The notes under the pieces were generated by a model, which was given only the letters and a program-made list of their open reading frames with translations, was not told the origin of the DNA and did not search any database. This document shows positions 1 to 10,571 of a stretch of 13,959 bases of DNA, piece after piece. Origin of the DNA: a virus (Duplodnaviria; Heunggongvirae; Uroviricota; Caudoviricetes); IMG/VR virus record IMGVR_UViG_2740892233_000006; one strand, 5' to 3'. Within the stretch, counting starts at the first letter, position 1. Every line of letters starts with the position of its first letter. Made by a program: the position numbers and the translations under genes.

Positions 1-407
1 CGTAGCTGATCACATGCGCCTTTGATATCGCCCTGGTTTATTTTGCGAAGAAGCGTCGATGTTCTGAAATTGCCAGCACCCACGTTGTAAACGAATGAGT
101 AAAGAGCGCCGCGCGTTGTTTCCGGTATATCGACTTCGATGTACGGGTTAATTTGTCTGGCGACAGTGGCAAGGTCTTTATTCAAGAGTGCTTTGCATTC
201 TGCTTTGGTATACGTTTTACCGAGCATGATGTCTTTTCCTGTATGCCCGTGACATACAGTCCATACACCAACAATATCTTTGTATGGTATGTAGCTGACA
301 CCTTCCAGACCATCGTTACCACTTGGGCCAGTGATTAACACTGATGCTATAGCAATTGCTCCGCCACCAATAGCAGCAGCAACGGCTTTTCGTAATGATG
401 GAGGCAT
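1..407 (-). CDS. rrrD: SAR endolysin (phage 21 R / RrrD-like lysozyme), C-terminal part lost at window start
   Basis: Minus-strand reading from ATG at 407-405 gives [23 protein letters not shown]..., a signal-anchor-release N-terminus as in phage 21 R. The ATG overlaps the holin stop (TAATG). ORF runs off the window edge. Confidence 0.8.
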
Positions 408-622
408 TATTCACCTCTCGCAGCCTTGCGCTTATCTTCTTTAATCTTGAAATAAAGGTTTGTCAGGTACGTCAGCAGGCCAAATACCAGGCTACCCAGC
501 ACACCTATTGCTGCCCACTGTGAGGGCGTGACTTTATCGAGCAGCTGTAAAAACCAGTAACCGGCACTACCTGCTGAGGTGCCATAGGCGACACCCGTTG
601 TTAACTTATCCATGGATTTCAT
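407..622 (-). CDS. essD: class II pinholin (S21 / EssD-like) with dual-start motif
   Basis: ORF track 407..667; likely real start is the internal MKSMDK (Met-Lys-Ser-Met dual start) preceded by GAGGTG SD, giving 71 aa: [31 protein letters not shown]...[13 protein letters not shown] with two hydrophobic segments. Confidence 0.85.
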
Positions 623-749
623 AACCCCACCTCGCAGACAAAGCGGGTGTAAATTGAGGGAATACAACGTATCGCAAAAAAGCAGAAACGTAACAGACTC
701 GGAGTCAGTGAATAACTCAGGTATTGGGTTATCAGCTAATATCGAGACT

Positions 750-783
750 CAAAAAATGGAAAAACCCGCTCGACGGCGGGTTT
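750..783 (-). terminator. rho-independent terminator just upstream of the lysis cassette (candidate tR')
   Basis: Minus strand reads CCCGC-cgtcga-GCGGG stem-loop followed by TTTTTCCATTTTTT. Confidence 0.6.
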
Positions 784-1210
784 AAGCTGTGTGACGAAGT
801 AACCACTCTTAACAGCATAACCAATTTTTTACGTACGTAAACCACTAAATGATATTTGCGAGAATGCTACCGAGTATTGAAAACACCACTACAAATACAT
901 AAACAAATCTCAACAAATAACCAACAAATAATTTCCAGCGTTATTTTTAGCCGATTTAAATTGAACCTTCAAATTATAGGGCACTTATAAATAACAGCCA
1001 TTAATATAAATTGGCTAATAGATTTATTTTTATTCAGCCAAGAGCCATGAATAGGATTCGATAGAAAAAGTTCAGATAAAAATAGAGATCTACTTCACAA
1101 ATCAAATGAGAAACCAAAACTTACATCTTGAAATAATCACATTGATTAGATGAATATTTATCGCGCAGTGACATCATTTTTTAATAATAGTTCAAAAAAA
1201 AGGGCTCACG

Positions 1211-2293
1211 ATGAAAAAATTAACAGTGGCAATTTCTGCTGTAGCTGCATCAGTACTGATGGCGATGTCTGCTCAGGCAGCTGAAATTTATAATAAAGAC
1301 AGTAACAAGCTGGATCTGTACGGGAAAGTTAATGCTAAGCACTACTTCTCCTCTAATGATGCAGATGATGGTGATACTACTTATGCCCGTCTTGGCTTCA
1401 AAGGTGAAACCCAAATCAACGATCAACTGACTGGTTTCGGTCAGTGGGAATATGAATTCAAAGGCAACCGCGCTGAATCTCAAGGTTCCTCCAAAGATAA
1501 AACCCGTCTTGCCTTCGCTGGCCTGAAATTCGGTGACTACGGCTCCATCGATTATGGCCGTAACTACGGTGTAGCATACGATATTGGTGCATGGACCGAC
1601 GTTCTGCCAGAATTCGGTGGCGATACCTGGACCCAAACAGATGTATTCATGACTGGTCGCACCACAGGTGTTGCAACTTATCGTAACAATGACTTCTTTG
1701 GTCTGGTTGATGGTCTGAACTTTGCTGCTCAGTATCAGGGTAAAAATGACCGTACTGACGTAACTCAAGCTAATGGTGATGGTTTCGGTTTCTCCACTAC
1801 TTATGAGTATGAAGGTTTCGGCGTAGGTGCAACCTATGCTAAATCTGATCGCACTAATAATCAGGTTATCTACGGTAACAACAGCCTGAATGCATCTGGT
1901 CAAAATGCTGAAGTATGGGCAGCTGGTCTGAAATATGATGCGAACAACATCTATCTGGCTACTACCTATTCTGAAACCCAAAACATGACTGTTTTTGGTA
2001 AAAACCATATTGCCAACAAAGCACAAAACTTCGAAGTAGTTGCACAATATCAGTTCGACTTCGGTCTGCGTCCGTCCGTTGCTTATCTGCAATCTAAAGG
2101 GAAAGACTTGGGTGCTTGGGGTGATCAGGACCTGGTTGAATATATTGATGTAGGTGCAACCTATTACTTCAACAAAAATATGTCCACTTTTGTTGACTAC
2201 AAAATCAACCTGATTGATAAGAGCGATTTCACGAAAGCATCTGGCGTTGCTACCGATGATATCGTTGCTGTAGGTATGGTTTACCAGTTCTAA
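1211..2293 (+). CDS. nmpC: outer-membrane general porin, prophage-encoded (NmpC/Lc type, OmpC/OmpF/PhoE family)
   Basis: 360 aa; signal peptide [23 protein letters not shown] then [16 protein letters not shown]...; C-terminus ...VGMVYQF. Lies between Q and holin on the opposite strand. Confidence 0.9.
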
Positions 2294-2317
2294 TTTGATT
2301 ACTAAAACATATGTTGT

Positions 2318-2363
2318 GGGAGGCTTTGCCTCCCCAACATATAAGTGGCTCCCTCAAGCCACT
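2318..2363 (+). terminator. stem-loops downstream of nmpC (candidate nmpC terminator; no canonical U-tract)
   Basis: GGGAGGC-ttt-GCCTCCC (2318-2334) and AAGTGGCT-ccctca-AGCCACTT (2342-2363), starting about 25 nt after the nmpC stop. Confidence 0.35.
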
Positions 2364-2481
2364 TCCTTTAGAAGCACAACCTTGCTTCTAACTATATAAA
2401 CCTTCTGTTATATATTACCCTTTATTTTTGGGGGCGTTTCAACGCCCCATTCTTAATAATTTTTAGTAAACAATTGGCATA

Positions 2482-2865
2482 TTAATTAGAGTTATTAACA
2501 ACGATATCCATCTCTAACCGGATATCTAATGCCATTAACATCCCTTCAATTATGCCCTCAGCCTTCTGTAACCTTTTCCCGATATAACCATCAGAGCAGC
2601 AATGCTTACCTGCCAGTGACATGAATGTCATACCGACTACATAATAATCTACTAATAAATCGTGCAAATCGCTGTTGTTCTTTTTCAGACGGGCCATGCA
2701 CCCGCAAATGATCATCGCGTCATCGTCACAACATTGCGGGCGAGATTTTACTTTTGAAGTAATTAATCCCTTAAAACCGGCGGCAATGGACGACCAGGTC
2801 ACATCTTCATGATTATTAGCCGCCCACGCTCCCCAACGCTCAAGAACCATCTGAATATCACGCAT
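2482..2865 (-). CDS. quuD: late-gene antiterminator Q (phage 82 / QuuD type)
   Basis: ORF track 2482..2880 (TTG start); better start is ATG at 2865 ([24 protein letters not shown]...) with GGAG SD 8 nt upstream; 127 aa, Cys-rich, matches remembered QuuD. Confidence 0.85.
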
Positions 2866-2950
2866 CAACTTACTCCACAAAAATCAGACCAGAACGCCAA
2901 TTACAAGCAAAAATCAACGAAACAGTATTAGTTGATTGTTATCTCTGACT

Positions 2951-3073
2951 TCATACTCCTGCTCCTGTCAGGGTTTTGGCGTAATTCTTCAGTATTCGGT
3001 AATCGGTCAAAACAGAACCGGGGAAACGATATAAGCGCAGACGCCCCCAGCGGTGGCGAAGACGTTCTGCCAT
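2951..3073 (-). CDS. ylcG: small protein, YlcG-like (40 aa)
   Basis: Manual translation between rusA stop and Q start: MAERLRHRWGRLRLYRFPGSVLTDYRILKNYAKTLTGAGV*. Same position as ylcG in DLP12. Confidence 0.4.
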   Translation of the reverse strand: MAERLRHRWGRLRLYRFPGSVLTDYRILKNYAKTLTGAGV

Positions 3074-3087
3074 ATAAAACTCAAACA

Positions 3088-3450
3088 TCATTCATTCCCC
3101 ATTTCGGTGATGGTCAGTTCCAGCCTCCCACCTTTGGTAACAGGCATCTTCACAACGCGGTAATCAACGACCTGAGCATCATCCAGCCAGAAACCTGCTT
3201 TAGTGAGTGCGTCAAAAGCGGCTTTTTGCAGATTATCCAGGTCACGGCGACGGCGATCCGGCATGTGGCACTCAATGCGGATTTTCACAGGCATAGCCAA
3301 GCCGATATCCAGCATTGCGTTTTTAATGATTCGGGCGACGTTATCGCGGTATGCCTGCCCCTCTGCGCTGACGTGCGTGCGCCCGCGATTATGGCGGTAA
3401 TAGCGATTATTGCTCGGAGGCCAGGGTAATGTGATGCTGTAGGTATTCAC
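3088..3450 (-). CDS. rusA: RusA Holliday junction resolvase
   Basis: [38 protein letters not shown]...[11 protein letters not shown]; likely GTG start at 3450 overlapping the ybcO stop (GTGA); 120 aa. Confidence 0.85.
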
Positions 3451-3737
3451 GCCTTGATTACCCCCTCTTTCAGCCAGATAACCTGCGTTCTCGCCATACC
3501 TTCCAGCGCGCATTCTTTTGCGTACTCAGCATCGACAAAATGCGTGCGGCGGTCGATTTCGTCGTGACAGGCAGAACAGGCAATGGTGGCAATAAGGTCT
3601 GGCGGTTTAATACCGGTGCCACACAGTCCAGCCAGCCGGATATGTGCCAGTACAGACGTTTCAGGGTTGCCATTGCATACGCCAGGGATTCTTACCTGGC
3701 ATTCGCGACCACGCGCTGCTTTTCTCAAATCAGCCAT
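3447..3737 (-). CDS. ybcO: YbcO-like protein (DUF1364, putative nuclease)
   Basis: ORF track 3447..3776; start at internal [37 protein letters not shown]... (96 aa), Cys-rich; overlaps the ninE end. Confidence 0.8.
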
Positions 3738-3900
3738 GATTCCTCCTTGCTGCCAGTCGCAACCATTTTTTATCAACCAGGCTGGCGGTATATCCGAGCA
3801 GTGTTGGTATTTCGGATGGTTTTAGCTCAGGCTTACGCTTACGACGATTTGGTACTCTGTAGATGTGTCCGTTCATGACACGAATAAGCGGTGTAGCCAT
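3730..3900 (-). CDS. ninE: NinE-like protein (56 aa)
   Basis: Manual translation: [59 protein letters not shown] overlaps the ybcN stop (TAATG); stop overlaps the ybcO start. Confidence 0.7.
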   Translation of the reverse strand: MATPLIRVMNGHIYRVPNRRKRKPELKPSEIPTLLGYTASLVDKKWLRLAARRNHG

Positions 3901-4355
3901 TACGCCTCCTGCTTGTCGCGCAGCAGCTGGAACTCGCAGCTCTGCGGAATAGTCAGGTGGCAGCCAATATTCATCGCCCAGGCTTCAACCTTACACAGGA
4001 AGACATACATCTCTCCGGTATCAAGATCGGAGGTATGGCGTAACGACTGGATAGTAGTGATTTCGCCGGTTACGACATCAACCAGGTCCTTGGTTTCATA
4101 ACCGAGGTATGTGTGTTTGAGAGCATCTTTTACCCATGCTGCGGTAGCGAACGATTTCCCCCTGCGGATAAGGTATTCACTGATTTCGCTGTACCACATG
4201 TGGCTAAGTGCATTCTGGGAAAGACTGCGTCTCTCGCGCCACGGTTTAAGCACCATGCGAAAGCACTTGCCGTCTTCCAAATAAGGCTGGAGCTGCTGAC
4301 CGATAGCGGTGAAGTTACCGCGATGCAGTTTGATGCCGTCTTGTGGGAGGTTCAC
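3900..4355 (-). CDS. ybcN: YbcN-like protein (DLP12 ybcN homolog; reported DNA base-flipping protein)
   Basis: 151 aa [55 protein letters not shown]...; GTG start preceded by GGAGGTGA SD. Confidence 0.8.
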
Positions 4356-4391
4356 GCTTCACCTCCGCAGAGGTCAAACGCTGGATAAAGA

Positions 4392-4484
4392 AAATCGCAG
4401 GTGCATTTCTGCATCTGTGACGGGAGAAGATAGTTTAGATTGTATGTGCGCATAAACGTCCCCGTTTAGCGCAGAAGTCACCGG
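4392..4484. repeat. 93-bp direct repeat, copy A (about 95% identical to 6713-6805)
   Basis: aaaatcgcaggtgcatttctgcatctgtgacgggagaagatagtttagattgtatgtgcgcataaacgtccccgtttagcgcagaagtcaccg; contains palindromic hairpin GCGCataAACG-tcccc-GTTTaGCGC. Confidence 0.75.
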
Positions 4485-4505
4485 AGGAGTTCAAACTCCG
4501 GTGAC
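4479..4505 (-). other. perfect 9-bp stem-loop downstream of the cargo cassette (TCACCGGAG-N9-CTCCGGTGA); no U-tract
   Basis: Inverted repeat read directly; lies between the 133-aa gene stop and repeat copy A. Confidence 0.35.
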
Positions 4506-4576
4506 TTAATTATGACAAGTTGATTATTGAAAATCAAAAGTCATTTAAACAATAATGATACCCAGCAAGAGATTTC

Positions 4577-4978
4577 TTATTTTAACTCATAGATCAGACA
4601 GTCAACGATTTCTAAACCATTTACCATAGAATTAGAAACGCGAACTTTACCATCGTTGACTCTAGCAAATCCTTTTAACATTTTATAAACAAAAGCTGAA
4701 TCCCCCTTAGCCTCAATTGCTTCTAATGGTATCGGCTTATACTTTTTTGATATGCTATTTCTATTTATCTCACTGATTTTTCTATATATTTCTGCCGGCC
4801 CACGTTCTGAGAAGTCACTGATAACTAAAATATATCTCCAAGATAGATCTGGGTAATAAAACCACATTGCAGCATCAATAGTTAAATTCTGTAACTTGAG
4901 TTTTTTTAACAAAAATTGACCTGAGAATTCCATATCTTTTGTCAACTCTCTGCCGATTACCAGTGTGCTTTTACCCAT
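4577..4978 (-). CDS. hypothetical 133-aa protein, partner gene overlapping the HEPN-like gene end
   Basis: ATG at 4978 preceded by GGAG SD (7-nt spacing); overlaps upstream gene by 22 nt; AT-rich codon usage unlike flanking phage genes; no family recognised. Confidence 0.55.
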   Translation of the reverse strand: MGKSTLVIGRELTKDMEFSGQFLLKKLKLQNLTIDAAMWFYYPDLSWRYILVISDFSERGPAEIYRKISEINRNSISKKYKPIPLEAIEAKGDSAFVYKMLKGFARVNDGKVRVSNSMVNGLEIVDCLIYELK

Positions 4979-5373
4979 TTCAAAACTCCAGAATTTTGGT
5001 CACCTACAGCATCAAACAATTGTTCGGCCATAGCTTTACTTATGTTATTGTCGTATCTAAATTGCTCGCTCCAGTCTTTAACGACCGACCAGTTAATCTC
5101 CAACGAAACATCATTTTTTGCGTCAGCAATCAAAATTTGATGTAAGTTGGCAATTTTGAGAAGTTGCGACAAATCATGAGTATATGAATCATTTACGACT
5201 TTTTTGTTTGGAAACTCATGTTGTAAAAATGACTTGGCAATACAGGCCTTCAATGCACATTCAACTGCATACCCACAAAGATAATATGCACCATGAAAAA
5301 AGCCATGATCAAGCAAGCATTTGGCCTCATTAAGCCTAGTGTCAGATAATGCTTCAAGGTCGTTTTTATTCAT
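4957..5373 (-). CDS. HEPN-like domain protein (138 aa), candidate toxin/abortive-infection effector
   Basis: LLDHGFFHGAYYLCGYAVECALKACIAKS ... SYTHDLSQLL ... EQFRYDNNISKAMAEQLF matches the remembered HEPN (PF05168-type) pattern (helical A-x-E-x-ALKA, H-x-L-x-x-L, RY); TATAAT-like hexamers upstream on minus strand. Confidence 0.5.
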   Translation of the reverse strand: MNKNDLEALSDTRLNEAKCLLDHGFFHGAYYLCGYAVECALKACIAKSFLQHEFPNKKVVNDSYTHDLSQLLKIANLHQILIADAKNDVSLEINWSVVKDWSEQFRYDNNISKAMAEQLFDAVGDQNSGVLKWVKAHW

Positions 5374-5672
5374 ACAATTATAACTTGAATTATCCTAATT
5401 TTTATGATTATACCCTTATCAGGTATGATGTAGGAACTGAAAACAATATTGGATATCATTTTCGGTATTTCTCTGCAAATTCCAGCCCACAGGATCTCGG
5501 TGTACAATCTGTCGCTGATCGCGCAAATTTAGGGTCAATCACTTCATTTTTTGCATCAAACCCTCACTAACATCGAACGATTATAGTACAAGTAGTGTTC
5601 TTGACTTCTCATTAAACCGTCAGCATTCAATTAATTACAAAATACTAGCGGCATTTCTCTCCCGCAACTTTA

Positions 5673-6281
5673 TTACAGCCGTTCAGAACGTAAATGCGTC
5701 AATACTCGACTCCACTTATCATCCTGCCACGGCCGGAATTTTACATGTGCCGTTTCTCTGGCAAGGATTGCCTGTGCCTTATTGAGTATCCGGGGATATT
5801 CTTGTTCGATTGAAGTGAAGCGACCGGCTTCGCGGTGTTCTGCTACCTGAAGAAGCGGAGTGACGTTTTGGCAAGCGGTTAACATTGTGTCACTTGCCCG
5901 CCATAACCAAGCAAGTGTGCAAAGTTCGTTATCAGTGAATTGTTTTGTGATTGGGGATTGTTGAATTTCTCGATCGAGAATATCCAGCACCCAGCGGCGG
6001 AATTCTTTGGCCACAGGAGTGCGGGCGAACATGGCGATCAGATGGGCGCCACGGAGGGAGAAAATGCGAGTCTTCTTACGATAATTTCCTGAGGTCGTTG
6101 ATTCGACGACCTGAGACATTCCGTCAGTAAACTCATCAATATTTTTGTTGTAGATGTCGGTTACTGCTTTGGTGCTGGCATATTTTAATGCTGCCGCCAA
6201 TTCTTTGCTGGTAAACCAGATCTGGTTGTTGTGATTTATAGGAGTGAATTTTACATCGCGGAATGCGAGCTGAGTGACCAT
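5673..6281 (-). CDS. phage antirepressor-like protein (Bro-N / KilA-N / AntA-type N-terminal domain, unknown C-terminal domain)
   Basis: ORF track 5673..6518; domain-like sequence starts at internal Met: MVTQLAFRDVKFTPINHNNQIWFTSKELAAALKY...TRIFSLRGAHLIAMFARTPVAKEFRRWVLDIL. Start is uncertain (no good SD); a terminator at 6443-6466 argues against the 6518 start. Confidence 0.55.
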   Translation of the reverse strand: MVTQLAFRDVKFTPINHNNQIWFTSKELAAALKYASTKAVTDIYNKNIDEFTDGMSQVVESTTSGNYRKKTRIFSLRGAHLIAMFARTPVAKEFRRWVLDILDREIQQSPITKQFTDNELCTLAWLWRASDTMLTACQNVTPLLQVAEHREAGRFTSIEQEYPRILNKAQAILARETAHVKFRPWQDDKWSRVLTHLRSERL

Positions 6282-6442
6282 AGCGATAATCTCGTTTTGA
6301 ATTTGAGCTATCACCACCGACGACGCCAATCGACTGGTGGTGGACTGTGCAAGGTTGGCGTAACCGGTCAAAACGAAATCCGGCGCTTCCGAAGAAGCCC
6401 TCACACAGCCCACCATAATTTTTGTGTAGACGTGCACTGCGC

Positions 6443-6466
6443 ATAAAAAAACCGCGAACGCGGTTA
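6443..6466 (-). terminator. rho-independent terminator in the nin-type region (tR2-like position)
   Basis: Minus strand: AACCGCG-ttc-GCGGTT followed by TTTTTTTAT. Confidence 0.6.
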
Positions 6467-6712
6467 TGCGTCGTTTTGATGTCCGGGACGCCAATCCCGT
6501 GTGCCGATTTTGCGGCAACGCACAGAATATAGCGCCGGATAAATAATGTCGTCAACCCTTGCATATGGGGGGCGCGATGATCACTACTACCACCATAATC
6601 GCTCCAACTGTTGCAACTACTTTAGGCTAAGACATCACGATTTCCATATCACCTTTAGCCGCCAGACAAACAGAGACTCCCTGTTCTTGGCTGCCAAAAA
6701 CACCGAATGCAA

Positions 6713-6805
6713 AAAATCGCAGGTGTATTTCTGCATCTGTGGAGGGAGAAGAGAGTTTGGATTGTATGTGCGCATAAACGTCCCCGTTTAGCGCAGAAGT
6801 CACCG
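6713..6805. repeat. 93-bp direct repeat, copy B (partner of 4392-4484)
   Basis: aaaatcgcaggtgtatttctgcatctgtggagggagaagagagtttggattgtatgtgcgcataaacgtccccgtttagcgcagaagtcaccg; 5 mismatches to copy A. Confidence 0.75.
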
Positions 6806-7033
6806 TAGTTGTTCATATTCTGATGACATGATAATTTCCTATTGAATAGAAAAAATTAACACGACTCATTCTTATGACTGGAAAAAGCAATCATGCTAAT
6901 AATCATTGTTGTTCCAGTTCCAAATGCAGCGAAATAATCACCAATATTTTTTCTACCGGTTTCGACTTTGATGCTATATTCTGCTAACACCTAACTAACA
7001 CTACGTTTCACACAGCAATTACATGGAAATAAC

Positions 7034-7381
7034 ATGACTATCAAAGCGACTGACATAGAGATTCTTCATCGTTATGCTGAAGGGGTAATGGAACGTTCTA
7101 ACCATCATGCAAAAAATGTTGGTGCAGCCGCTCTTACATTGCTAGGAGGTGTTATCTGGAAAGCCCTGCCCGGATCAATCGAGATAAGAACGTATAACGG
7201 AAGTCTTGCAAATATGGTGTGGTGGCAAAGCGAAAGAACATTAAAAAATTATGCAATCTCATACAACCATAATTCATGTGAAATTGAAATGAGAGATGAA
7301 TCAGTCAAAGGTGCTGTATTATTTAGCATTTCCAACGAAACCACTCCAGAAAAAATATTATCACAGCTTTCTGAGCTTTAA
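7034..7381 (+). CDS. hypothetical 115-aa protein, reverse-oriented orphan (moron) gene at the ren position
   Basis: MTIKATDIEILHRYAEGVMERSNHHAKNVGAAALTLLGG...; purine-rich RBS; AT-rich; opposite strand to the flanking early genes; stem-loop directly downstream. Confidence 0.55.
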   Translation: MTIKATDIEILHRYAEGVMERSNHHAKNVGAAALTLLGGVIWKALPGSIEIRTYNGSLANMVWWQSERTLKNYAISYNHNSCEIEMRDESVKGAVLFSISNETTPEKILSQLSEL

Positions 7382-7386
7382 TTAAA

Positions 7387-7404
7387 GGCGGTGCTAACAC
7401 CGCC
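7387..7404 (+). terminator. stem-loop after the 115-aa gene (GGCGGTG-ctaa-CACCGCC), weak or bidirectional terminator
   Basis: Perfect 7-bp GC-rich stem 6 nt after the stop codon; A/T-rich flanks but no clean U-tract. Confidence 0.35.
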
Positions 7405-7556
7405 CATACCATTACTCCACATCTTACGCAACTTGATAATTATGCTCTATTAAATACCCACAATATTTCATCAATGCATGGGTCAGCTACAAAATGTTTA
7501 CCGTGGTAATTCCTGTTTTCGCAACATCTCAAAAGAACAATAAACACTGTATTTCT

Positions 7557-7589
7557 TCAAGTAACGAAGAATCTTTCTTTGCCCGTCAT
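7557..7589 (-). pseudogene. ren: ren 5' remnant (MTGKERFFVT*)
   Basis: ATG overlaps the P stop codon (GTATGA) as ren does in lambda; first residues MTGKE match remembered lambda Ren, then stop after 10 codons. Confidence 0.4.
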
Positions 7590-8431
7590 ACACTTGCTCC
7601 TTTCAGCCCAAACTTAGCTTTGATTTCTGCGATCTTCGCCAGAGCCTGTGCACGATTTAGAGGTCTACCGCCCATAACAGGAAGTTGTTTTACTGGTTCA
7701 GGTATCGTCTCACCACGGTTAATTCGCGCTGTCATACAGGTCAGTTCATCGGCAGCCTTGCGCCGTAATTCCGCGTCAGTCAGCGCATTGGCCCGCATGT
7801 TCTGGTACAGGTTGGTAACCAACCAGTAATGCGCGTTCGATTTCCACGGATAAGACTCTGCATCCGGATACAGGCCACGCTTCCGGCAATACTCGTAAAC
7901 CATATCAACCAGCTCGCTGACGTTTGGCAGCCCGGCGTTAACGGATGCTTCTTCCCGGCACCATGCAACAAACTGCCCGGGTGATGGCAGAAATGGTCTA
8001 TTCTGCCGACGGGCAACACGCATTCCGGCGCTCACCTGTTCCATCGTGGTGATCCCGTTTTCCCGGAAAGCCAGAACCCACTGGCGGCGGATTTCGTTCA
8101 GTTCGTTCTGGTCACGATTAGCCAGGCTCGCCGGGAAAGTTGCCAGTAACTGGCTGAATACACCGTTGATTATCTGCGCTACCTGCTGTACCTGCGGCTT
8201 TTCGTCGTACTGTTCCGGCATGTTGTTGGCGATCCGACGCATCTGCTCACNNNNNNNNNNGTTAGCCAGGCTCGCCGGGAAAGTTGCCAGTAACTGGCTG
8301 AACACACCGTTGATGATCTGCGCTACCTGCTGTACCTGAGGCTTTTCGTCGTACTGTTCCGGCATGTTGTTGGCGATCCGACGCATCTGCTCACGGTCAA
8401 AGTTAACCATCTGTGCGGCGATGTTTTTCAT
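7586..8431 (-). CDS. P: replication protein P (lambda P-like helicase loader); reading frame contains scaffold gap 8251-8260 with duplicated flank
   Basis: MKNIAAQMVNFDREQMRRIANNMPEQYDEKPQVQQ... ...KIAEIKAKFGLKGASV; the 281-aa ORF is inflated by an artefactual repeat of EQMRRIANN...ASLAN around the N run. Confidence 0.85.
   Translation of the reverse strand: MKNIAAQMVNFDREQMRRIANNMPEQYDEKPQVQQVAQIINGVFSQLLATFPASLANXXXXEQMRRIANNMPEQYDEKPQVQQVAQIINGVFSQLLATFPASLANRDQNELNEIRRQWVLAFRENGITTMEQVSAGMRVARRQNRPFLPSPGQFVAWCREEASVNAGLPNVSELVDMVYEYCRKRGLYPDAESYPWKSNAHYWLVTNLYQNMRANALTDAELRRKAADELTCMTARINRGETIPEPVKQLPVMGGRPLNRAQALAKIAEIKAKFGLKGASV
8251..8260. other. 10-nt N run (scaffold gap) with about 130 bp near-identical duplicated flanks
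   Basis: Sequence before the gap (gattagccaggctcgcc...atctgctcac) recurs after it with 3 mismatches. Confidence 0.95.
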
Positions 8432-9503
8432 AGATCCACCCCGTAAATCCAGTCTGTGTTTGTCAGGTCGAGTTTTGGTTTGCTGGCTGTCACGGCTGCC
8501 TGTTGCTTGTTACGGTTGATTTCGAGCTGGGTCCACTTGTCGCGGAGTTTGGCCGGACTNNNNNNNNNNAATCCACCCCGTAAATCCAGTCAGTGTTTGT
8601 CAGGTCGAGTTTTGGTTTGCTGGCTGTCACGCCTGCCTGTTGCTTGTTACGGTTGATTTCGAGCTGGGTCCACTTGTCGCGGAGTTTGGCCGGACTCAGC
8701 ACGTTACCGGACCAGAAGTTGTCCTGGCAGGCCCAGCGGAAAAGCACACACATATCGCGGTGGTTACGTCCGTCACGTTCACGCATCAGGCGGATATCGT
8801 TAGCCCACCCTGCAAAATTCGGTTTTCTGGCTGATGGTGCGATGGTCTTCACCATGTCAAACATCCACTCTGCGGCGGTCAGGTCTTCTGCTGTTCCCCA
8901 CTTGCTGCCGCTCTGAATTGCAGCATCCGGTTTAACCACAGAAAGATCGTTTTCTGGCTGGTCAGAGGATTCGCCAGAATTCTCGGACGAATAATCTTTT
9001 CTTTTTTCTTTTGTAATAGTGTCTTTTGTGTCCCCCTGTTTTGAGGGATAGCAATCCCCTAATTTGAGGGATGTTTTATCCCTCGTTTTAGGGGATTTTC
9101 CCTCGTTTTGAGGGATGTCCCTCATTTTAGGGGAACCTCCCTCGTTTTGAGGGATGCACCATTCTGAGATGTTTTTATTTGGTCCAAACATGCCGCCTTG
9201 CTGCTTGATAATATTCATTCTGACGAGTTCTAACTTGGCTTCATTGCACCGTTTGACAGGTAACTTTGTAATCTCGCTAAGTTGAGAATCGGTGATTCTG
9301 TCCATTGGTTTATTCCACCCATAGGTTTTACGCAGAATGGCAAGCAGCACTTTAAACTGTCGCTTGGTCAGATCTGCGCCTGAATAGGCCTCAAGCAGCA
9401 TATTTGATAGTCTGGCGTAACCATCATCGAGATCTGCCACATTACGCTCCTGTTCGGCAAAGTTACCTCTGCCGAAGTTGAGTATTTTTGCTGTATTTGT
9501 CAT
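8428..9503 (-). CDS. O: replication initiator O, lambda type (contains ori iterons; frame interrupted by scaffold gap 8560-8569)
   Basis: MTNTAKILNFGRGNFAEQERNVADLDDGYARLSNMLLEAYSGADLTKRQFKVLLAILRKTYGWNKPMDR...; GGAG SD; the C-terminus ...TDWIYGVDL with stop overlapping the P ATG lies in the segment below the gap. Confidence 0.8.
8560..8569. other. 10-nt N run (scaffold gap) with about 125 bp near-identical duplicated flanks
   Basis: O C-terminal coding sequence appears on both sides of the gap with 2 mismatches. Confidence 0.95.
9031..9156. repeat. lambda-type replication origin iterons, six copies inside the O gene
   Basis: Six TCCCTC-N5/6-GAGGGA-type palindromic units at about 20-bp spacing, followed by an AT-rich stretch. 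Confidence 0.8.
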
Positions 9504-9535
9504 AATGACTCCTGTGGATTGATCCAGTAATTCCC

Positions 9536-9677
9536 TCAGAATTGCATATCAATTTGCTTAGAGTCCCCGGCGGCCACCGGGGATTTTTTCTTTGTGATTT
9601 CATCAAGCGCATACTTAAAAGCCCTGCTAATCGGACTGATGTCTGATGCCATTCCGAAAGCACACAAGACCGAAGCA
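9536..9677 (-). CDS. cII-like gene, 3' fragment only (5' end lost in scaffold gap)
   Basis: Frame ending at stop 9536-9538 encodes ...ISRAFKYALDEITKKKSPVAAGDSKQIDMQF*, resembling the remembered lambda CII C-terminus (...ILTNKKRPAATERSEQIQMEF); directly upstream of O. Confidence 0.45.
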
Positions 9678-9687
9678 ATAAATCTCC
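9678..9687. other. 10-nt N run (scaffold gap) joining an O 3' end to a cII-like 3' fragment
   Basis: Flanks are not duplicates here: one side is O C-terminal coding sequence, the other a cII-like gene end. Confidence 0.95.
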
Positions 9688-10571
9688 NNNNNNNNNNCGA
9701 CTGTCACGCCAGCCTGTTGCTTGTTCCGGTTGATTTCGAGCTGGGTCCACTTGTCGCGGAGTTTGGCCGGACTCAGCACGTTACCGGACCAGAAGTTGTC
9801 CTGGCAGGCCCAGCGGAACAGTACACACATGTCGCGGTGGTTACGTCCATCACGTTCACGCATCAGACGGATATCGTTAGCCCACCCTGCAAAATTCGGT
9901 TTTCTGGCTGATGGCGCGATGGTCTTCACCATGTCAAACATCCACTCTGCGGCGGTCAGGTCTTCTGCTGTCCCCCACTTGCTGCCGCTCTGAATCGCAG
10001 CATCCGCTTTCACCACAGGAAGGTCGTTTTCTGGCAGGTCAGAGGATTCGCCAGAATTCTCGGACGAATAAGGTTTTATATTGTCTTTTGTTAGTTTGTC
10101 TTTTGTGTTTACCTGATTCGGGTAAGTGCCTTTACCTGATTTGGGTAAACTTTTCTTACCTGATTCAGGTAAATTTACCTCTTTCAGGTAAACTTTATTT
10201 TTCTTACCTGATTCGGGTAATGTTGACCATTCACTGACCACATTATTAATGCCGATATTCCGCCCGCTCTGAATAAAAATCCCACGCTTTACCAGAACAC
10301 TTTTTGCAGCAGAACACTTGTGCGGCAATATCCCGGTCAACTCGGAAAGTTGCTCGTTGCTCACCCAGTCCAGTTTTTTATTAAAGCCATATGTTTTGCG
10401 CATGACAGCCAGGAAGACCAGAAGCTGGTGCTGTGTTAATCCGGCCAGCATTACAGCTTCCAGCAACTCATTTGCAATGCGCGTATAACCATCATCGAGA
10501 TCTGCCACGCGCGGCTCCTTTTGTGCCGCATCCGGCACTGGAAAATTGAATATCTCAGCAGTGTTTGCCAT
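9688..10571 (-). CDS. replication initiator O, second type (different N-terminal iteron-binding domain; 3' end lost in gap)
   Basis: Start MANTAEIFNFPVPDAAQKEPRVADLDDGYTRIANELLEAV... with GGAGG SD (ORF track start 10661 is too long); C-terminal domain identical in sequence to the lambda-type O. Confidence 0.75.
10108..10222. repeat. second replication origin iteron set, five copies of TTACCTGATTCGGGTAA-like palindromes inside the second O gene
   Basis: Five units (TTACC-N7-GGTAA) at 23-29 bp spacing, read directly. Confidence 0.75.

Follow-up and report, generated by a model that had tools for sequence, protein, structure and literature searches.

The question raised by this locus is why one prophage should carry the same 93-nucleotide (nt) sequence twice, in the same orientation, within its early-right region. 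The locus lies in IMG/VR virus record IMGVR_UViG_2740892233_000006, a stretch of 13,959 nucleotides (hereafter the window) that belongs to a lambdoid prophage and carries its early-right genes on the minus strand in the order cI/cro, O, P, a cargo zone, ybcN-ninE-ybcO-rusA-ylcG, and Q. One of the two sequences (copy A) precedes ybcN and the other (copy B) lies upstream of it, ahead of an antirepressor gene. We consider it probable that the two are paralogous copies of a conserved leader cassette of about 190 bp that heads the lambdoid Orf/nin gene block, that copy A serves ybcN as its functioning leader, and that copy B is an old duplicate whose leader open reading frame (ORF) has been joined to a hydrophobic peptide upstream of an isrK/C4-antirepressor module; the three statements are offered as a single explanation. 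The cassette is widely distributed, its first two hairpins are kept up by compensatory changes, its leader ORF stays in frame and overlaps the next gene, and in Escherichia coli K-12 an RNA 3' end falls just behind the first hairpin.

An earlier note on this DNA had described the repeat as two 93-bp direct copies with five mismatches, and it was recovered as such at both sites, at 6713-6805 for copy B, as the note had it, and at 4391-4483 for copy A, one base away from the position given there, since 4484 and 6806 form a mismatched pair just outside the best 93-nt register (offset from copy A to copy B, +2322). The hairpin GCGCataAACG-tcccc-GTTTaGCGC, also taken from that note, is present in both copies (4448-4472 and 6770-6794), and all five mismatches (4404, 4420, 4421, 4431 and 4437) fall downstream of it. 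A longer and weaker similarity extends upstream in the direction of transcription (4376-4537 against 6698-6859; 162 nt, 81%), the upstream parts of the copies being about 60% alike. The number of 93-mers with five mismatches expected by chance in 14 kb is, by estimate, far below 1e-30, and the two-copy region is not an assembly artefact, because window positions 1-8250 match the complete E. coli E2865 chromosome with 100% identity.

The repeat is found far beyond this prophage. Of 5426 complete E. coli genomes, 4253 contain the 93-mer, with 6292 occurrences in all, and it stands at a mosaic junction, in agreement with the idea that it might be a common linker in lambdoid nin regions. Matches of about 80% identity came from 29 phage genomes in the databases, phi80, HK225 and HK639 among them along with Enterobacter and Klebsiella phages, and a 29-nt core is present in at least 120 IMG/VR contigs. 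In a sample of species-representative genomes anchored on the YbcN protein instead of on leader DNA, the leader was present at 12 of 16 YbcN homologues (in Escherichia, Enterobacter, Citrobacter, Huaxiibacter, Siccibacter and Phytobacter) and absent at the remaining four, from three Pantoea genomes and one Rosenbergiella. The gene that it heads is not always of the ybcN type, as in HK639 and KO-TP1 it stands before ninB-type genes. A search with BLAST using the 93-mer also found GenBank X92588, from phage 82, in which Mahdi et al. (1996) annotated a putative -35 and -10, an inverted repeat labelled "possible regulator-binding site", a ribosome-binding site, and orf33 overlapping orf151 (= ybcN). 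Homology to the region of X92588 nt 48-235 extends over about 740 nt for copy A (93% identity) and over 138 nt for copy B (90%).

Read on the minus strand, which carries all features described here unless stated otherwise, leader A begins with a sigma-70 promoter-like element at 4509-4537 (TTGATT, a 17-nt spacer, and TG-n-CATAAT), whose hexamers are those annotated in phage 82. Across 120 leader variants both hexamers are at least 90% conserved and the sequence of the 17-nt spacer is variable. A palindrome, TTGAT-N8-ATCAA (4537-4520), is likewise conserved and overlaps the -35. Some IMG/VR contigs have a different palindrome there (ATCAyTTTT-C-AAAAGTGAT) together with an extended -10, TGnTATAAT. 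These palindromes suggest an operator for some dimeric factor.

Three hairpins, which we call SL1, SL2 and SL3, follow the promoter-like element. SL1 (4476-4506), recognized by folding and covariation, comes right after the -10 and consists of an 11-bp stem with a 9-nt loop; in the 120 variants the stem has been swapped many times with its pairing kept, often via G-U, while the loop, (C)CUGAACA, is conserved. The G-U pairs of the leader hairpins are possible only in minus-strand RNA. SL2 (4447-4473) has the form GCGCUAAACG-GGGA-CGUUUA(U)GCGC, with a Shine-Dalgarno-like GGGGA at its loop (4462-4459) and the AUG of the leader ORF (4453-4451) in its 3' arm; at least nine different stems were seen, all of them with a GGGA loop and with AUG or GUG in the 3' arm. 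A leader core of about 30 nt is nearly invariant across the 120 variants, most of whose loci were collected with that core as bait. SL3 and its U tract (4387-4421; CAG-A-UGCA-GAAA-UGCA-C-CUG plus three outer pairs) lie inside the leader ORF and look like a terminator, with a weak stem and a run of four to six U that was picked up by a terminator scan; SL3 varies little and shows few covariations, one clear compensatory exchange (A-U to U-A) being found in Siccibacter. The repeat ends here: of SL1, copy A includes the 3' arm, and it then takes in SL2, codons 1-21 of the leader ORF, and SL3 up to the first U's of its tract. In phi80-type leaders (loci L012-L015 and L002) the DNA of SL2, ATTTAAG-GGGA-CTTAAAT, resembles the half-site consensus of the P22 c2 operator, a likeness that we judged coincidental because this SL2 is shared by phages that differ in immunity, and because other variants pair via G-U.

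The support for these hairpins comes largely from covariation. A covariance model built from one leader type aligned 103 hits, 75 of them distinct, and in the alignment fitted to it 97.8% of the cells in paired columns could pair, compared with 16-35% in slid controls; none of 500 shuffles reached the observed value. Pairs changed on both sides numbered 25 of 28 overall, with 9 of 10 in SL1 and 10 of 10 in SL2. Folding the sequences individually recovers the same hairpins independently of the model. The two copies in the window differ in this respect, copy A scoring 110.5 bits against the model and copy B 84.5, with folding z-scores relative to shuffles of -6.3 and -1.8. A search of Rfam 15 covariance models with the whole window and with the leader alone returned no family for the leader, only chance-level miRNA and snoRNA matches (E 0.56-9.3), and neither the covariation nor the wide distribution of the leader is mentioned in the annotations and Rfam entries searched.

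From the start codon in SL2 runs orf33 (4352-4453), a 33-codon ORF of the YlcH family whose TGA stop and the GTG with which ybcN starts overlap in the sequence GTGA. The gene ybcN (orf151; 3900-4355) is the first one headed by leader A and belongs to the Orf/NinB family of recombination mediators (Curtis et al. 2014, PMC4118853); its start at 4355 lies 35 nt beyond the end of copy A. In the DLP12 prophage of K-12 the homologue of the small ORF, again in front of ybcN, is recorded as YlcH (UniProt-derived records). In all 120 variants an open frame follows the start codon in SL2; its lengths are 31-38 codons, all in frame, and its stop overlaps the downstream start (ATGA or GTGA) in 112 of 115. 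Formally, then, the repeat is part of a conserved coding sequence, namely the first 21 codons of orf33/ylcH, which the earlier note had named as a finding that would tell against it, but the peptide shows no constraint at the amino-acid level. It is moderately supported that orf33 is a leader ORF whose translation matters, and not its product.

An RNA 3' end has been mapped just behind SL1. For K-12, two condition tabs in the Term-seq data of Adams et al. (2021, PMC7815308) contain 3' ends at 572349 and 572350. They are classed as "orphan" and have low read counts, and we found no discussion of them in that paper. These positions are 19 nt upstream of the ylcH AUG and 6-7 nt past the SL1 stem, equivalent to 4472 and 4471 in the window.

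Copy B has the same head and a different continuation. Its SL2 (6769-6795; AUG at 6775-6773) is identical to that of copy A, and from this AUG runs a 46-codon ORF (ORF46, 6635-6775) that is homologous to orf33 for about the first 25 codons and then acquires a different C-terminus. Instead of an Orf-family gene, its stop overlaps the start of a second small ORF of 31 codons (6552-6647), which in relatives encodes the hydrophobic peptide MEIVMSWPKVVATVGAIMVVVVIIAPPICKG and whose own stop overlaps the -35 of the isrK/c4 promoter; across relatives the peptide has 29-31 residues and matches the C-terminal half of phrog_4612. The unit occurs in 301 E. coli genomes, one per genome, and in the isolated phages PhiR26_1 and IdasGreatGrand. 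Its geometry is regular: the leader core lies 74-77 nt upstream of the peptide junction in 49 of 50 loci, and a second leader follows 1.4-2.4 kb downstream in every peptide-junction locus with enough sequence, with at least seven classes of spacing. Two B subtypes are set apart by indels of 3 and 6 nt that keep the frame, and base differences between them in the tail of ORF46 fall, by our reading, at third codon positions of the orf33 frame. That each copy is the same leader cassette followed by a different overlapped ORF fits one of the two layouts considered in the earlier note, in which a regulatory element was duplicated and came to head two modules.

As found in the window, copy B is in decay: its promoter hexamers and SL1 are weakened (6798-6859; TTAATT...AATTAT, with only six SL1 pairs left), its SL3 is broken by a G>A change at 6726, and the peptide ORF is interrupted by a nonsense codon (TGG>TAG at 6629-6627). 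Other phages and contigs, such as L091 and L005, keep an intact B promoter and SL1. RefSeq (PGAP) annotates 78 nt of copy B as a truncated hypothetical-protein pseudogene.

The surroundings of the leader were compared over 202 copies, whose flanks fall into 92 distinct clusters upstream and 30 downstream. In one contig (L091, copies at 470-668 and 2933-3131) the two leaders are identical upstream of SL2, even at unconserved positions, and the antirepressor gene is truncated, which indicates that these copies were recently converted by, or recombined with, each other. Because it is so conserved, the leader probably also serves as one homology arm for swapping the adjoining upstream cargo. A link to IS200/IS605 insertion sequences, suggested by "tnpA" labels under hits of about 82% identity in many genomes, was rejected, as the insertion sequence adjoins a degenerate leader in a prophage remnant. 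In that remnant, in E. coli NT1W25 (L010, locus 3497-4124; emrE-ybcL-ybcM), the degenerate leader, of 31 bits, abuts a tnpA that has replaced ybcN and everything beyond it.

The picture drawn in the earlier note of a single repeat-bracketed cargo insertion of 2.2 kb finds no support here. The three minus-strand genes that it placed between the copies are there (6281-5673 for the antirepressor, 5373-4957 for the HEPN protein and 4978-4577 for the 133-aa ORF), together with features that it did not list: the c4-a1b1/isrK and C4 RNA genes, the 46-codon ORF and the disrupted hydrophobic-peptide ORF. The interval, however, combines two units that have had separate histories, namely the stretch from leader B to the antirepressor and a variable slot. 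The single-copy relatives that it proposed to look for do exist (phage 82, 4A7, PhiR30_1, PhiR5_1, Turner and K-12 DLP12).

With this evidence several other explanations can be weighed. That a 2.2-kb block was recently inserted upstream of ybcN, the repeats being a target duplication or a recombination scar, would agree with the direct repeats that bracket the interval and with single-copy relatives having the sequence directly before ybcN. There is, however, no transposase, integrase or terminal inverted repeat between the copies, an imperfect repeat of 93-165 bp is far too long for a target-site duplication, and the copies differ at five positions and are only about 60% alike in their upstream parts. 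B copies moreover share lineage-specific substitutions between phages whose antirepressor modules are 16-22% different, and the two-copy layout recurs in some 50 viral contigs as well as in 301 E. coli genomes, the contents near copy A being of at least seven kinds; a recent insertion therefore seems very hard to credit. A pure recombination linker, conserved as a boundary for module exchange and without regulatory role, is suggested by the mosaic junction with its hypervariable upstream flanks and by the conversion of copies in L091. Homologous recombination nevertheless needs no compensatory changes, yet the stems of SL1 and SL2 have been replaced with pairing kept; promoter hexamers, the geometry of Shine-Dalgarno sequence and AUG, and the ATGA overlap are conserved as well, an RNA 3' end exists at SL1 in vivo, and the similarity of about 80% between leader types would itself hinder recombination among them. 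We regard this explanation, too, as very unlikely.

Less improbable, and still unlikely in our estimation, is that copy B is a dead remnant, the truncated 5' end of ylcH left by an unequal or illegitimate crossover, and never was a leader. The PGAP label of an incomplete pseudogene, the damaged promoter, SL1 and SL3 of the window's copy B, the stop in its peptide ORF, and the mutated AUG and Shine-Dalgarno sequence in IdasGreatGrand all speak for it. Among the 16 distinct B units, however, most of the other variants have SL2, the AUG, the ORF46 frame and the hydrophobic ORF of 29-31 codons intact, several keep good promoter hexamers and SL1, the subtypes are separated by indels of 3 and 6 nt that stay in frame, and the leader parts of A and B remain more than 90% identical while the adjoining antirepressor module has diverged by about 20%. 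The leader might instead be chiefly the gene for a short RNA of about 40-115 nt that acts in trans or binds protein, and not in cis, and that ends after SL1 or at the U tract of SL3. The hairpins directly behind a promoter-like element, the K-12 3' end after SL1, the terminator-like SL3 with its U tract, and an SL1 loop and 30-nt core conserved beyond coding needs would suit such an RNA. Against it stand the invariable in-frame fusion of the element to a downstream gene start, the lack of a known target, the low Term-seq read counts, and the finding that leader pairing with the neighbouring C4 and isrK RNAs is no better than with shuffles, as opposed to the positive controls (a1b1 and the antirepressor leader); we think it quite improbable. 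All four are weaker than the leader explanation: insertion is contradicted by the distribution, the linker by covariation and the dead remnant by intact B units, and support for a trans-acting RNA is lacking.

For the working of the leader we propose the following. The leader would mark the start of the nin module, and SL1, perhaps with SL3, would terminate transcription or form 3' ends such that transcripts from the upstream cargo or from close to the promoter are kept out of the genes from nin to Q. Expression of these genes would be low and gated unless N-modified polymerase reads through, so that the leader would correspond in position to lambda tR2. Such low expression agrees with the rusA work, which according to Curtis et al. 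(2014, PMC4118853) implies that the DLP12 operon needs promoter-creating insertions to be expressed. For the first gene, translation would in turn depend on that of the leader ORF, itself restrained by SL2, in which the start is sequestered. Both the insulation and the translational coupling are our inference. A bolder version, which we consider improbable although conceivable, holds that the leader is an autonomous riboregulatory device of an undescribed family, with a promoter-proximal pair of covarying hairpins, a conserved SL1 loop and an invariant, switch-like 30-nt core, bound by a phage or host factor or acting in cis on RNA polymerase; such a device would decide on transcription and translation into the recombination genes and on to Q, and would have been re-used for a small membrane peptide.

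Several observations weigh against the leader explanation as proposed. The promoter is a putative one, and a promoter scan of the region yielded as many promoter-like sites as expected from shuffles. SL1 has no U tract, its strong stem being followed by CUUCUG, and at SL3 no Term-seq 3' end is listed for K-12 in PMC7815308. Nor does the explanation account for the conservation of the SL1 loop or for the palindrome over the -35. Fitting of the covariation alignment to its model inflates pairing, and the invariance of the core rests on the smaller BLAST- and protein-anchored samples. Codon changes in the N-terminal part of orf33 show no codon-position bias (5 synonymous, 16 non-synonymous), and the other two frames of the region are also long and open, which makes the openness of the leader ORF weak evidence; translation of orf33 is therefore supported by its signals and by conservation of the frame, and not by selection on the protein.

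Comparison with known systems places the leader among familiar arrangements. Closest are orf33-orf151 of phage 82 and ylcH-ybcN of K-12 DLP12, which have the same putative -35 and -10, the inverted repeat of SL1, the ribosome-binding site and the 33-codon ORF overlapping an Orf-family gene; the window differs from them in having the head of the cassette twice, the second time joined to another pair of small ORFs. Lambda tR2, between ren and ninB, occupies the same position, directly before an Orf-family gene at the start of nin, and in either case an RNA 3' end associated with a hairpin is plausible. It consists of one canonical GC hairpin with a U run, however, and has no sequence similarity to the leader, which has three hairpins (SL1 being without a U tract), a promoter-like element and a coupled leader ORF. 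The pyrBI leader attenuator and mok-hok are systems with a leader ORF or a translationally coupled upstream ORF. As in these, a short ORF runs through a terminator-like hairpin, overlaps the next start with its end and has its own start sequestered in a hairpin; in the B unit, as in mok-hok, the coupled partner is a small hydrophobic peptide, and a mok/hok-like layout of ORF46 and the peptide is possible by this analogy. The likeness is one of function without homology. In the modular theory, lambdoid mosaic boundary ("linker") sequences lie at the junctions of exchangeable modules; the leader resembles them as a conserved sequence at a module junction with one hypervariable side, and is unlike pure linkers in that RNA structure and expression signals, and not only recombination, account for its being conserved.

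Parts of the leader were annotated in 1996, and its kind is familiar, that of leaders or attenuators which have a coupled upstream ORF and lie at a mosaic junction; a lambda specialist should find no major surprise in it. What appears to be new is the covariation-backed structure of three hairpins, the breadth of its distribution, its re-use before a hydrophobic-peptide unit, and the definition of the adjacent cargo slot. The reading as an insertion scar thereby gives way to a very common cis-element of lambdoid prophages that has so far been annotated as a 33-aa hypothetical protein or, for copy B, as a pseudogene. As a candidate RNA motif the element is well supported; Rfam has no entry for it, and a 3' end in vivo has been published. 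Because it sits where lambda has tR2, the leader bears on the silencing of nin and Q genes, both in lysogens and in cryptic prophages like DLP12.

The module behind copy B starts with a promoter-like site found by scan (6526-6555; TTGACG, an 18-nt spacer, and TATATT), followed within 6333-6532 by c4-a1b1 targets (6532-6480), an isrK-like RNA with its terminator (6517-6445) and a C4 antisense RNA (6420-6333). In Rfam C4 scored 82.5 bits (gathering threshold 45), isrK 64.1 (50) and a1b1 40.6, which is below its threshold of 46.7; pairing of C4 with a1b1 and with the leader of the antirepressor gene was better than with shuffles. The antirepressor gene itself (ant, 5673-6281) encodes Bro-N and P22_AR_C domains. 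With a C4 RNA, target repeats and a downstream antirepressor, this is a P1-type c4/ant (immI-like) module, and its C4 and isrK RNAs, a1b1-like targets and Bro-N/P22_AR_C antirepressor behind copy B recall P1 immI (c4-icd-ant) and isrK-anrP of Salmonella Gifsy-1, a likeness that concerns the cargo and not the repeat. The isrK/C4-ant part is found in many E. coli genomes without leader B, in other contexts, and the block of leader B, small ORFs, isrK/C4 and ant forms a separate conserved unit.

Between this block and leader A lies the variable cargo slot (4545-5640), which in the window holds the HEPN protein and the overlapping 133-aa ORF. Homology between phages breaks off at 4538-4550, just upstream of the leader A -35, and resumes at 5638-5680, at the end of ant. 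At least seven gene sets take this place elsewhere (contigs L004, L005, L033, L091, L170 and L190), among them a 118-aa ORF; a 169-aa ORF; ORFs of 66 aa, 81 aa (theta-like) and 195 aa; a 241-aa ORF on the opposite strand; an 83-aa ORF; and ORFs of 58 and 210 aa. Several of these sets carry HEPN-like R-x4-H motifs, and searches of the alternative cargo proteins against PADLOC, Pfam and NCBIfam gave almost no family assignments. The HEPN protein of the window matches PF05168 at 27.8 bits (threshold 22) and, weakly, the PADLOC candidate PDC-M28A; slot proteins match phrog_5737 and phrog_5760, the 133-aa ORF only the latter. This partner has no family match in Pfam, NCBIfam or PADLOC, and the pair does not agree with the HEPN-MNT toxin-antitoxin type, in which the partner is a nucleotidyltransferase. 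The slot between the ant stop and leader A is likely an accessory or defence hotspot, and a place upstream of a recognizable leader where HEPN-type and other genes alternate should be useful for mining phage defence and accessory genes.

Two further observations concern the region upstream of leader B. The window contains three gaps of 10 N (8251-8260, 8560-8569 and 9688-9697), flanked within 8118-10000 by an apparent in-frame duplication of 48 aa in P, a 137-bp repeat, and a second O-like gene with its own iterons; since these duplications adjoin the gaps and the segment 8251-9697 is missing from the otherwise identical complete genome of E2865, they look like artefacts of scaffold joining or a mixed assembly. 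Between P and leader B, on the plus strand (7034-7381), lies a gene of the integron-cassette family VCH_CASS14 (PF18315, E 6e-20), and in other phages the interval from P to the leader holds PD-lambda-1/DUF4041, an esterase, EmrE with a recombinase, or a lipoprotein with an acyltransferase.

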